This document shows, one piece after another, positions 2,225-35,235 of a DNA stretch of 41,721 nt; the first letter of the stretch is position 1; every line of letters starts with the position of its first letter. The DNA is from Candidatus Bathyarchaeota archaeon. Lineage in GTDB: Archaea > Thermoproteota > Bathyarchaeia > Bathyarchaeales > DTEX01. The notes beneath the pieces are model-generated. The model had not been told where the DNA came from, did not search any database, and was given only the letters and a program-made list of their open reading frames with translations. The stretch is taken from NCBI GenBank assembly GCA_018396555.1, contig JAGTQL010000003.1:1-41721 (forward strand), written 5' to 3'. The position numbers and the translations under genes are program-made.

Positions 2225-4225
2225 TTAAACTATCTTCTTCACGGCATCTATAATCTTTTCCTTACTTGGTACAACTGTTGCTTCAAGCACTGGGCTCATT
2301 GGTATTGGAACATCAGCTCCTGCAACCCTGATCACTGGCGCATCTAGATAGTCAAACGCCTCCTCCATTATTAGAGAGGCTATTTCAGCTCCGAAACCGC
2401 AAGTTTTGCATGCCTCGTGAACCACCACAGCTCTATGAGTTTTCTTTATTGATTTAACAATCGTGTCGGCATCTAAAGGTTTTAGGGTTCTTGGATCAAT
2501 AACCTCTGCTTCTATTCCTTCCTTCGATAGTTCTTCAGCTGCCTTTAAGGCGGTATGAACCATTCTGGAATAGGCGATGATTGTGGCATCTGTACCTGTT
2601 CTCTTAATGTCTGCAACCCCTAAGGGAACAGTATACTCGGCTTCAGGAACCTCTCCTTCAACATTATAAAGCATCTTATGCTCAATAAATAGTATTGGAT
2701 TGTTATCTCTTATACACGTCTTTAATAAACCTTTTGCATCAAAAGGTGTTGATGGCATTACAACAAAGATCCCGGGGGAATGAATGAACCATGCTTCTAG
2801 GCTTCCGGAATGGTGGGCCGCTATACCTCTGCCAGCTCCACCTTGAGTTCTATAGACGACTGGAACTATTGATTTTCCACCAAACATATACCTGTTTTTA
2901 GCAGCAATGTTAACTATTTGATCCAGGGCTAATGTTATAAAGTCTATGTACATTATTTCAGCCACCGGTCGCATCCCGGTCATTGCTGCGCCAGCAGCGG
3001 ATCCAGCAATTGCTGCTTCGGAAATAGGTGTATCTCTCACCCTTTCAGGACCAAACTCATCATATAAACCTCTTGTAACACCATAGGCGCCACCATAAAC
3101 GCCTACATCTTCCCCCATTATAAAGACGCTTTCATCCCTTAGCATTTCCTCTCTTAACGCTTCATTTAATGCCTGTCTATAGTTGATTTTACGCATTTTT
3201 AGCCCCATCTTTTTAGCTGTAGGCAGATCTTTAATGGACGACTTCGGGTCGATGTAAATCTCTGTATACAGGTCCTCGTAAACAGATTCGATTGGCGGAT
3301 ATGGACTGCTTAACGCGAATCCTTCAGCCTCATTTATTTCTTCCGTAACTTCTTCTTCAAGCAATTTTAATTTCTCTTCAGTTAATATTCCTGCGTCAAA
3401 CAGTTTTCTAGAGAAGCTTTTTATAGGATCTTTCATTCTCCAGAATTCCTCTTCATCTTTCGTTCGATATCTTCTCGGATCGCTTAGTGAGTGACCAAAA
3501 TACCTGTAAGTTTTGCACTCAATAAATGTTGGCCCCTCTCCTCTTCTAGCTCTTTTAACAGCCTCATCAACGGTCTCCTTAACGTTAAGCACGTCCATGC
3601 CGTCAGCGATAACCCCTGGAATATTATATCCTTTAGCCCTCTCAGCAATATTCTCAAACGGAAAGGCTTTTTTAACTGATACCGACATTCCATAAAGGTT
3701 GTTTTCGCATATGTATACAACCGGGAGCTTCCATATGGCTGCCATATTTAGTGACTCATGAAAAGCTCCAGTATTAGCAGCTCCATCACCGAAGAAGCAT
3801 AAAACAACCTGGTTAGTTTTTCTCATTTTAATTGATAAAGCTGCTCCTGTAGCAACTGGAATATTTGACCCAACTATTCCGGTCGCTCCAAGGTTTCCTG
3901 AACTAACATCAGCAACATGCATTGACCCGCCCTTACCCTTGCAATATCCAGTAGCTTTGCCAAGAAGTTCAGCCATCATAAGTTTTATGTCTGCACCCTT
4001 TGCTATGCAATGCCCGTGACCTCGATGTGTACTTGTTATATAATCATCTTTGCGTATGGCTGCGATGGAACCTACGGCGACGGCTTCTTGACCTATATAT
4101 AAATGGGATGCACCCTTAGCAATATCTTGCATTAAAAGATCCATGTATTTTTCCTCAAACTCTCTTATGAGCATCATCTGCCTTAAATATCCAATTAGCT
4201 CCTCAAGTGTATACTTTTCAAGCAT
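2225..4225 (-). CDS. TPP-dependent dehydrogenase E1, alpha and beta subunits fused (pyruvate/acetoin dehydrogenase-like)
   Basis: 666 aa. N-half: [26 protein letters not shown] motif [12 protein letters not shown]-half: [38 protein letters not shown]. Confidence 0.93.
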
Positions 4226-4447: not shown

Positions 4448-5915
4448 ATGTTAAAAGAAGATGTTTATGATGTAGCGATTATAGGTGCAGGTATAGGTGG
4501 CTACGTCTCAGCTATAAGATGCTCACAGCTGGGGATGCGCGTTGTATTAATTGAGAGATGGAAAGTTGGCGGTGTATGTTTAAACAGAGGATGCATACCG
4601 ACTGCCGTGCTGTTTACTACAGTTAATCTTTTAGAAAAAATTAGACGCGCTAAAGATTATGGAATTCTCATCGGGAGTTTTTCAGTGGATCTCAACAACT
4701 ATGCGAGAAAAAATTAGACGCGCTAAAGATTATGGAATTCTCATCGGGAGTTTTTCAGTGGATCTCAAAGGAGTTAAAGCCAAAAAAGAAGCTATAGTTG
4801 ACCGTCTGAGCCAGGGAGTTAGATATTTACTTGAAAAAAATAAGGTTGATTTTATTGAGGGAGTTGGTAGAATAAAATCACGAAATCGCATAGTTGTTGA
4901 GAGAAATGGTGAAGAAAGGATTGTTAATGCGAAAAATATTATCATAGCATCTGGTTCCAGACCTAGACAACTGCCTAACATCCTCGCGGATGGAATTAAA
5001 ATAATTACGGCTGAGGATGTCTTAGGTCTAGAAGAGGTTCCGGAAAACATATTTATTATAGGCGGCGGGATTCTGGGAGTTGAATTCGCCCAAATATTTC
5101 GCTCATTAGGGGCAAATGTAACGATTCTGGAAAAGAGACAAAACTTACTTCCTAACCTCGATAAAGAAGTTGGCACTACTTTTCGCAGGATTTTGGAGAG
5201 AAACGGCATTAAAATATTTACAAGAGTCTCCTCCGAATTGGCAAGCGTTAAGAATGATAAAGTCAATTTAACATTCCAGGCGGACGGAGGGAAAGTTGAC
5301 GCTACCGCTGATAAAGTCATAGTCACTGTTGGGCGGATACCGAATATAGAAGATTTAGGTCTTGAAAATATAGGTGTTCGATTAAAGGATGGTTTTATAG
5401 AAGTTGATAGACGCATGAGAACTAATGTTCCCAATATTTATGCTGTGGGCGACGTCATTGGCGGAAAAATGTTTGCGCATGCAGCTCTTGCTGAAGGTTT
5501 GGTTGCAGCCGAAAATATTGCTGGATTAGAAAGAGAGATTGAATGGAGAACAATTCCAGTCTGCATATATACTACGCCTGAGATTGCGAGCGTAGGTTTA
5601 ACGGAAGAGGAAGCCGCCAATTTAGGTTATAAAATATCAGTTGGAAAGTTCCCATTTATGGCTAATGGAAGGGCACTGGCTCTTGGCGAAAGAGAGGGGT
5701 TTGTTAAAGTGATTGCCAGTAAAGAAACTGATGAAATTTTGGGGGTTCACATAATTGGTCCAGATGCGTCTAATATGATTAGTGAGGCTACAGTTGCGAT
5801 AAGGCTTGAATGCACATCCGAAGAGCTAGGCAGAATTATTCACCCTCATCCTACTTTAAGCGAGACAATTATGGAGGCGGCTTTGGCGGTTTTTGGGAGG
5901 GCAATCCATGTTTAA
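4448..5915 (+). CDS. lpdA: Dihydrolipoamide dehydrogenase (E3), frameshifted in this sequence by a 73-bp duplication insert (probably an artefact)
   Basis: ORF 4448..4717 has GAGIGG and GGVCLNRGCIP; ORF 4659..5915 has GGGILG, AVGDV, HPHPTLSE. Removing 73 nt gives 1395 nt, a single 464-aa frame. Confidence 0.88.
4633..4768. repeat. Direct repeat, 2 x 63 bp (4633-4695, 4706-4768), with a 10-nt spacer
   Basis: Exact copies agaaaaaattagacgc...gtggatctcaa; junction 4690-4706 is the reverse complement of 4886-4902. Confidence 0.95.
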
Positions 5916-34645: not shown

Positions 34646-34660
34646 CAAATAGTTTATTAA
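34646..34660 (+). promoter_or_regulatory. BRE/TATA promoter of the SRP RNA gene
   Basis: caaatag-tttattaa ending about 22 nt before the 5' end of helix 1. Confidence 0.65.
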
Positions 34661-34682
34661 TCCCAAAAACTAAAAATCTAAT

Positions 34683-35076
34683 GGACGGCGGGTCTTAGGC
34701 GGGGAGCTAGGGGTCCCCTGAGAGACGCACGGTCTCGACCGTAAACCCCCCTATACGACGGGCCGAAAGCTAAAGTGAGGCGTGTAAGGCCGCGGATCCG
34801 GCCGACCCTAAGCGATGAGTATCTGTCCTCTGGGGCTGGCGGTCGCGGGGCATCCTCCGTAGGGAGGGTGTAACCGCGTTTGTCAAGCGAACCTGGCCAG
34901 GCCCGGGAGATGGGGTGAGGGAAGTAAAATGGGAAGGGTAACATTGCTGAATAGGCTGTCCACCCGAAGGAGCAACCTAAGCTTGGGCGTTCAGCGCTCA
35001 GAGGGGTGCGGGTATGAGCGGTGGGCTGGTTTGGGTTTGCGGATTCTGCGCGTCGAGCTTTAGTGGCCCGCCGTCC
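34683..35076 (+). ncRNA. ffs: Archaeal signal recognition particle (7S) RNA, interrupted in helix 8
   Basis: GC-rich island. Helix 1 ggacggcgggtc/ggcccgccgtcc; Alu helices 3/4 with loop-loop tagggg/ccccta; helix 6 catcctcc-GTAG-ggagggtg; GAACC; helix 8 halves CCAGGCCCGG and GGAGCAACC separated by an insert. Confidence 0.93.
34910..34968 (+). other. Putative 59-nt BHB intron in SRP RNA helix 8
   Basis: Central helix CGGG(34904-07)/CCCG(34963-66); 3-nt bulges AGA(34908-10) and AAG(34967-69); intron helix TGGG/TCCA. Cutting after the 2nd bulge nt yields CAGG-CCC-GGGA-GGG-AGCA. Confidence 0.85.
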
Positions 35077-35235
35077 GCCCATGTCTCCTTGAAAGATAAT
35101 CCTCCATATCGCAAGTAGGCAGTTCCAAAGTTAATGTCTAGGTTTTAATAATGCGCTTTTTTAAGAGCGGCTACATGAACTTTAGAATCCTAAGCGGCGC
35201 ACACTCAGGTATTGCTGAGCATTTTTAGTTGCTAA

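Follow-up and report, generated by a model that had tools for sequence, protein, structure and literature searches.

The 41,721-nucleotide stretch of DNA analysed here (referred to as the window; contig JAGTQL010000003.1 of a Candidatus Bathyarchaeota archaeon, whose genome is designated G000) carries a full-length signal recognition particle (SRP) RNA gene, and the tip of helix 8 in this gene is interrupted by an insert of 59 nucleotides (nt). The insert is best explained as an intron with a relaxed bulge-helix-bulge (BHB) motif, located in the single SRP RNA gene of this genome and removed by the tRNA-splicing endonuclease EndA together with RtcB, and we place the probability of this reading at about 85%. 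SRP RNA is a new host RNA for BHB introns; inserts of this kind are rare and patchily distributed in Bathyarchaeia and they are present in at least one other class.

A discrete insert in a single-copy SRP RNA gene

The region 34686-35073 on the forward strand is matched by the Rfam family RF01857 (Archaea_SRP) over model positions 1-317, with a score of 135.2 bits in cmscan against a cut-off of 96.5, and the order of the gene is collinear with that of the model. At the apical loop of helix 8, however, the Rfam alignment contains 61 letters whereas the model has 2. The insert is positioned one base 3' of the GGGA loop of helix 8, and the gene is divided by it as follows:

34686..35073, + strand: SRP (7S) RNA gene with intron (Rfam RF01857); RNA contigs run from ~34683 to ~35077
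34686..34909, + strand: exon 1 (5' domain, 5' strand of helix 5, helix 6, 5' strand of helix 8, GGGA loop and first G of the 3' strand)
34910..34968, + strand: 59-nt BHB-type intron
34969..35073, + strand: exon 2 (3' strand of helix 8 with AGCA, 3' strand of helix 5, and the 3' end)

The limits of the insert are set by comparison with relatives, for which a set of 41 genomes inclusive of G000 was used, 39 of them with an SRP RNA match. Within the genus g1, the gene was matched in 22 genomes, of which 4 (G000, G003, G004 and G021) carry the insert and 18 are lacking it; it is also absent from 16 other relatives with a match outside these 18 congeners. The insert-bearing hits in this genus are 387-391 nt long, whereas the insert-free ones comprise 15 full-length hits of 327-334 nt and 3 that are cut at contig ends, and the RF01857 scores are 135-154 bits for the four insert-bearing congeners versus 154-177 bits for the 15 insert-free ones. 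The homologous inserts in G003, G004 and G021 are 60-63 nt in length. When the gene was compared by BLAST with 35 insert-free loci, exon 1 (gene positions 1-224) aligned unbroken to all 35 and exon 2 aligned from gene position 281, the break at 224/281 with an overlap of 3 nt being seen in 33 of the 35 cases; in the two exceptions the second piece starts at position 284 (L039) or the alignment stops at a contig end (L036). Five insert-free congeners that were aligned with the four insert-bearing ones all read GGCCAGGCCCGGGAGGGAGCAACC at this place, and only the removal of 34910-34968, i.e. a cut at 34909/34969, reproduces this sequence. The symmetric CAGG/AGCA loop, the 3-bp apical stem and the GNRA loop of helix 8 are likewise complete only after 34910-34968 are removed, and they are then identical to those of the insert-free orthologs.

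The SRP RNA gene is flanked by a phosphoglycerate mutase gene and a gene for a TtuA-like PP-loop protein. All 17 of the relatives' loci that were examined have apgM upstream, and 15 of them have the ttuA-like gene downstream, irrespective of whether the genome carries the insert; based on these common flanking genes the loci are orthologous. The genome G000 (1.74 Mb in 120 contigs, 90% complete) contains one SRP RNA match only. One match apiece is also found in G003, G004 and G021, and several of the insert-bearing genomes with a single match (G003, G021, G045 and G099) are 96-100% complete.

In a preliminary description of this DNA, made from its letters alone, it had been stated that helix 8 is interrupted by 59 nt at 34910-34968, that the cutting rule for BHB motifs restores an intact helix 8 with a GNRA loop, and that the absence of a second intact SRP RNA gene should be confirmed. 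The interruption is established by the Rfam alignment and by the BLAST breaks against relatives, the product of the cutting rule is identical to the insert-free orthologs, and the single RF01857 match in G000 agrees with the third point. The suggestion made there that such genes may be missed by standard annotation does not hold for this gene, whose Rfam match is above threshold, and what stands of it is that the score falls.

The SRP RNA gene of three insert-free congeners is truncated by a contig end soon after helix 8 (G012:C19, G019:C161 and G020:C18, corresponding to L036, L035 and L034). These contig ends may reflect strain mixtures which differ at this place, or they may be due to chance.

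BHB boundaries of the insert in several lineages

The pairings and bulges at the boundaries of the insert are listed below, where H denotes the central helix, h' the helix on the intron side and h that on the exon side:

34903, + strand: exon-side closing pair h, C34903 with G34970, the sole Watson-Crick pair in the register with 3-nt bulges
34904..34907, + strand: exon strand CGGG of H (last C of the stem and first three loop bases), pairing with 34963-34966
34908..34910, + strand: 5' bulge AG/A (A34908, G34909, A34910), with a predicted cut after 34909, a site set independently by the insert-free orthologs
34911..34914, + strand: 5' strand UGGG of h', pairing with 34959-34962
34959..34962, + strand: 3' strand UCCA of h'
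34963..34966, + strand: intron strand CCCG of H, with 97% of the cells paired
34967..34969, + strand: 3' bulge AA/G (A34967, A34968, G34969), with a predicted cut after 34968

The central helix is made up of the pairs C34904-G34966, G34905-C34965, G34906-C34964 and G34907-C34963, and h' of U34911-A34962, G34912-C34961, G34913-C34960 and G34914-U34959, the last of which is an A-U pair in G003, G004 and G021. The cut after the second base of each bulge follows the canonical rule for tRNA introns as described in PMC4090602. In an alternative register, the mature pairs C34903-G34969 and C34902-G34970 are formed and a bulge of 2 nt is left. The 4-bp central helix, the two opposed 3-nt bulges and an h' of at least 2 Watson-Crick pairs all agree with the strict hBHBh' form. 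However, in either register the motif is relaxed on its exon side, and it is a relaxed (HBh'-like) BHB rather than a strict hBHBh' motif. The pairings and bulges named in the preliminary description are thus all present; its designation of the motif as a BHB stands for the central helix, the bulges and the intron stem, and is to be qualified for the exon side, where there is only one Watson-Crick pair.

The function used for finding the register reproduces the intron boundaries given by ARAGORN for tRNA-Met and tRNA-Leu(GAG) of G000. ARAGORN reports 36 tRNAs in this genome, 14 of them with an intron and several with odd anticodon positions; a strict BHB was found within 4 nt of the call in 4 of the 14 introns, 2 of these being exact, and the ARAGORN boundaries for the remaining tRNA introns are unreliable. 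Further tRNAs of G000 with non-canonical or multiple introns probably escape ARAGORN.

A loose scan for BHB motifs gave about 60 hits per SRP RNA, and 1385 in both strands of the window even when h' of at least 4 was demanded; as loose BHB motifs are very common, the motif alone is uninformative. The loose scan was therefore replaced by a test in a fixed register, which is set by the comparative indel and not by a search for the motif. In this register, H together with h' of at least 4 bp was found in 21 of 200000 shuffles of the intron and at 15 of 83202 places in the window, so that in the fixed register such a motif would be expected by chance in approximately 1-2 of 10000 cases.

The same site is interrupted in other Bathyarchaeia. 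A sample of the class comprising 151 genomes inclusive of G000, 134 of them with a match, contained eight full-length hits of at least 342 nt, and in all six over-long hits newly found in the class the extra letters are present at the apex of helix 8. The ten insert-bearing genomes known from the relatives and from this sample, with their genera and insert lengths, are:

G000, g1: 59 nt
G003, g1: 63 nt
G004, g1: 60 nt
G021, g1: 60 nt
G055, g36: 30 nt
G045, g36: 29 nt
G057, g46: 18 nt
G099, g53: 101 nt
G066, g53: 101 nt
G072, g53: 91 nt

In all ten genomes the boundaries read exon ...CGGGAG/A and intron ...CC(C/G)GAA/(G/A)GAGCAACC. The four pairs of H are complete in 9 of the ten, with 3 of 4 present in G045, and h' consists of 2-7 bp whose sequences differ between the genes (UGGG/UCCA, AGGAGUU/AACUCCU, AGAGGUA/UACCUCU, UG/CA and UGGAG/CUCCA). 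In G057, where CUC/GAG replaces the CCC/GGG of the exon stem, pairing is likewise restored by the predicted splice. In an alignment of the ten genes 89.2% of the cells pair, as compared with at most 55.9% for registers that were slid, and both sides change in 6 of the 7 pairs of h'. The observed values were reached by 0-3 of 500 shuffles for four of the five measures of covariation, and by 17 of 500 for the fifth, the number of further pair types.

A search with a strict pattern found the design in 11 of 401 genomes of the class, belonging to 4 of 131 genera, and a reversed control gave 0 hits. In a sample of the phylum (151 genomes), the only clearly over-long hits outside the class came from two genomes of the genus g130 (G281 and G255), which is part of another class. 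The g130 insert is 15 nt long and has the same site and the same bulges, H being CGGG/CUCG or CGGG/CCCG. A scan of metagenome contigs gave 12 hits, all of which belong to RF01857 (110-168 bits) and whose inserts measure 24, 26, 30, 51 or 63 nt, and a scan of genomes of all species for inserts of 40-70 nt between the same exon motifs returned three archaeal contigs bearing the insert sequences of G003, G004 and G021. The bacterial hits of the latter scan were set aside, two of them being normal-length bacterial large SRP RNAs and three not SRP RNA. The survey of relatives for variable inserts with a conserved BHB at this site, which had been proposed as a check in the preliminary description, has accordingly uncovered inserts of 15-101 nt with unrelated interiors in several genera and in 12 metagenome contigs.

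With regard to the interior of the insert, 34895-34985 gave 0 Rfam matches at E values up to 10, and neither a group I or group II intron nor a C/D box small RNA was recognised there. A C/D box RNA in the intron was also rejected by comparison, as the CUGA of G000 is CUAA in G003 and CCGA in G004.

Several further observations concern SRP RNA genes of related lineages. Run X1 has yielded, besides one described below, a DNA contig in which 83 letters replace 41 between the aligned parts 34887-34917 and 34959-34981, and it is from another organism with an insert of ~101 nt, like that of g53, at the same site. The g130 genes L071 (G281) and L072 (G255) have 18 or 23 letters, versus 1 in the model, in the conserved loop of the hairpin of the 5' (Alu) domain, and these letters may represent a second insert or intron. 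Six of the seven g39 genomes, three of the four g67 genomes and all five g116 genomes lack a match to SRP RNA, and only partial matches are found in a family-mate genus, g97, where seven of eight hits cover approximately model positions 99-273. Genes that are more disrupted or permuted may account for these missing or partial matches, or they may be due to the scoring of only 10 of a large number of first-look candidates. A pattern with permuted order was found in 0 of 5 genomes of g116, a result that is uninformative, as the reversed control hit 4 of 5.

Proposed removal of the insert and alternative explanations

Information on the RNA is provided mainly by run X2, a metatranscriptome with about a third of the sampled words, whose contigs were aligned at 90% likeness. 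In one X2 contig, the alignment to the gene ends at 34909 and is followed by GGAGCAACCTAAGCT, and in three contigs whose alignment begins at 34969 the letters before this position are CAGGCCCGGGAG; these X2 contigs carry the ligated junction 34909/34969. One of the junction contigs is identical to 34969-35021, a 53-mer which among the 39 loci is exact only in the insert-bearing G000 and G004, the nearest insert-free locus having 2 mismatches. Further, an X2 contig of 225 nt corresponds to 34683-34894 apart from 6 differences and 1 gap, whereas the best identity to an insert-free congener over gene positions 1-224 is 87.5%. Due to this closer similarity, X2 appears to contain transcripts from a member of the insert-bearing group, and the junction contigs would derive from such an organism. 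In the DNA, a 12.4-kb contig of run X1 retains the insert. The depth in X2 is 0 in the bins 34923-34960, as against 958 in the flanking 34885-34903 and 2431 in 34961-34979, and this gap is not counted as evidence, as no joint across it is recorded among the aligned contigs. Four contigs of run X23 were aligned, which come from other relatives, and none were aligned from run X24.

The genes for the enzymes in question are present in G000. Two genes with an EndA domain, each an open reading frame (ORF) for 186 amino acids (aa), are found on C84 and C17. One of the paralogs is most similar to the PDB chain 3p1z_B (E 6e-44), whereas the other, which is 27% identical to the first, is most similar to 5x89_A and 1a79_A. 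The catalytic triad of EndA is Tyr-His-Lys, and the second paralog has Ser at the position of the His in the LEHAPY of the first. The two paralogs are probably the catalytic and structural subunits of an (alpha-beta)2 heterotetramer, and according to PMC6379350 endonucleases with this composition are among the two types by which relaxed BHB motifs are efficiently cut. RtcB is also encoded in G000.

Based on these observations, removal of the insert may be envisaged as follows. The SRP RNA gene would be transcribed with the 59-nt intron at the tip of helix 8, and in this precursor the CCCG at the 3' side of the intron would pair with the exon CGGG, giving rise to a 4-bp central helix with the bulges AG/A and AA/G and with UGGG/UCCA as the closing helix towards the intron. 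Cleavage after the second base of each bulge would then be carried out by the tRNA-splicing endonuclease, which is probably a heterotetramer, and RtcB would join 34909 to 34969, yielding CAGG-CCC-GGGA-GGG-AGCA, the hairpin needed by SRP19 and SRP54. The intron would presumably be released as a circle, and the unspliced RNA would be expected to be non-functional.

A number of observations weigh against the proposed excision of a BHB intron. With respect to the motif itself, h consists of 1 Watson-Crick pair in 10 of 10 genomes, although the definition of a strict hBHBh' motif, as given in PMC7714728, asks for at least 2 in the exon-side helix, and the clean tRNA introns of G000 have an exon-side helix of 5-6 pairs. 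An unconstrained fold of 34880-34995 gave no BHB and was no better than those of shuffles (z +0.87). Formation of the BHB in G000 costs 3.5-7 kcal/mol relative to the fold of minimum free energy, the probability for H being 0.05 at 37 C, and H is present in the minimum-energy fold at 37 C for only 5 of the 10 genes. Covariation is not seen in H, where 3 of the 4 pairs are invariant because the exon strand is a conserved, constrained loop. Further, the structure that was tested on the ten genes was drawn from these same sequences, which favours it over the slid registers, and the search pattern forced H in the 12 metagenome hits, where only the h' stems (2-7 bp) are independent. The assignment of the EndA paralogs as catalytic and structural is made from one aligned residue and the Tyr-His-Lys triad. 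Lastly, the X2 contigs showing the junction are assemblies in which one of its sides spans only 12-15 letters, and insert-free relatives, several of which are present in X2, would yield the same junction; other relatives are abundant in this run. The X2 contigs should therefore be interpreted as support for splicing in the source organism, and not as proof of it.

If the insert were instead retained as an expansion segment, it would remain in the mature SRP RNA and extend helix 8. The insert does fold into a stem which continues helix 8, and the RNA evidence of excision is at the level of assembled contigs; however, such a segment would take the place of the GNRA loop and apical stem, which all other archaeal SRP RNAs retain, its length and sequence are unconstrained (15-101 nt) with only the BHB boundaries conserved, and the X2 RNA contigs go from 34909 directly to 34969. 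We consider retention of the insert to be quite unlikely. It is very unlikely that the RNA is cut and left unligated, so that the SRP RNA would consist of two pieces kept together by helices 5 and 8. Helix 5 could hold the halves together, and fragmented structural RNAs occur in other systems, but the covalent junction is present in the RNA contigs and RtcB is present, and without ligation the pair closing the tetraloop would be broken.

The remaining explanations question the gene rather than its RNA. One of these takes the interrupted gene for a copy that is decaying or silent, with the functional SRP RNA gene located in the unassembled part of a genome that is 90% complete and in 120 contigs. 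This is highly improbable, as every insert-bearing genome, including several that are 96-100% complete, has a single match, the exons are conserved as in the insert-free orthologs and at a syntenic locus, and the same design persists in five genera. That the insert is an assembly artefact or a chimera has in its favour nothing other than that the source is a metagenome-assembled genome; homologous inserts are found in 13 genomes and in 12 metagenome contigs of separate assemblies, and also in the 12.4-kb X1 DNA contig, and the probability of an artefact is practically negligible. The relaxed BHB intron, removed by EndA and RtcB, is thus the explanation that we favour.

The ends of the SRP RNA and its surroundings also deserve mention. 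An X2 contig joins 35075 back to 34684, going back 392 positions (depth 50.9, with 32 letters on the shorter side), and a second X2 contig that starts at 34683 is preceded by the 3'-end sequence of a relative. This end-to-end joint suggests a head-to-tail form of the SRP RNA, either circular or tandem, or alternatively an artefact of template switching. No BHB was seen at the termini of the SRP RNA, which were inspected only by eye. Upstream of the gene there is one additional feature:

34653..34660, + strand: TATA-like box TTTATTAA, a putative promoter ~27 nt upstream of ~34683, where the X2 RNA contigs begin, although contigs cannot prove a start

On the opposite strand, an antisense ORF of 134 aa at 34678-35082 (-) spans the whole SRP RNA gene and has no Pfam match; this frame is most likely spurious, the DNA being G+C-rich and RNA-coding, and gene callers could mis-annotate it. 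Elsewhere in the same order, contig C44 of genome G030 has two full-length SRP RNA matches 1.3 kb apart, at 3279-3591 and 4913-5230 (165.9 and 119.5 bits), in an apparent tandem duplication of the gene.

Significance and comparison with known systems

The SRP RNA is a universal and essential non-coding RNA, and it is now added to the short list of hosts of BHB introns, which includes tRNA, rRNA and two mRNAs. The lineages with this intron would require the tRNA-splicing endonuclease and RtcB for co-translational protein targeting. The patchy spread of the intron, with 11 of 401 genomes and 4 of 131 genera in the class and one genus elsewhere, provides a compact case for the study of gain and loss of archaeal introns. 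For annotation, it is of importance that covariance-model scores fall in the presence of the insert, and SRP RNA genes with longer or several inserts could escape detection.

Unrelated interiors at one site in at least five genera could result from repeated site-specific gain, e.g. by a reversal of splicing, and the intron could also provide a checkpoint, whereby SRP19 and SRP54 are prevented from binding the RNA before it has been processed by the tRNA-splicing enzymes. A broader proposal, which we put forward only tentatively and consider rather doubtful, is that across the Thermoproteota BHB introns have occupied the tip of helix 8 either recurrently or since ancient times, with repeated gain and the checkpoint role both possible, and that the collinear intron is a living form of the ancestor of the permuted SRP RNA of Thermoproteus. 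The permuted circular gene of Thermoproteus would in that case arise by a rearrangement within the collinear intron.

Archaeal pre-tRNAs are the usual carriers of BHB introns, which Marck and Grosjean in 2003 reportedly described at the canonical position 37/38 as well as at non-canonical positions. The inserts described here resemble them in the 4-bp helix, the two opposed 3-nt bulges, the cut after the second base and the unconstrained interior, and the lengths of 15-101 nt are within the range of 11-129 nt of tRNA introns, as these are characterised in PMC4090602 and PMC6379350. They differ from pre-tRNA introns in that the exon helix of the latter is the 5-bp anticodon stem, whereas here it is one Watson-Crick pair, the host is SRP RNA, and the exon strand of H is a GNRA loop. 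The BHB introns outside tRNA recorded in PMC7714728 are those of rRNA, of the cbf5 mRNA in Crenarchaeota and of the 5' untranslated region of HVO_1309 in Haloferax, cbf5 having been, according to this 2020 paper, the sole example outside tRNA and rRNA before HVO_1309. These introns are likewise substrates of EndA beyond tRNA, and none of those recorded there is in SRP RNA. No report of an internal SRP RNA intron was found in full-text literature searches, from which subscription journals were mostly outside, and within that coverage the statement in the preliminary description that none is known can be upheld.

Circular SRP-associated RNAs are reported for Sulfolobus, Halobacterium and Haloferax in PMC3326292 and PMC12558985. 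The X2 joint between 35075 and 34684 resembles these circles; however, it concerns the ends of the molecule and not the insert in helix 8.

The closest known system is found in Thermoproteus tenax and T. uzoniensis, whose SRP RNA is permuted and circularised. Plagens et al. (2015, eLife, PMC4731332) describe the SRP RNA gene of T. tenax as permuted with its termini "at the tip of helix h8", where a BHB is cut by the T. tenax EndA. The molecular place is the same as in the present gene when compared at the level of the helix 8 tip, and the enzymes would be the same. However, in Thermoproteus a leader and a trailer form the BHB and ligation closes a circle, whereas here the gene is collinear, the intron is internal and two exons would be joined. 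The order of the gene is not permuted, and it should not be interpreted as a member of the Thermoproteus type. In the account of Plagens et al., a "simple BHB intron" state was postulated as the ancestor of the permuted SRP RNA. A collinear intron as described here supplies the state which they had postulated, and the origin of the permuted SRP RNA genes thereby becomes testable by comparison.

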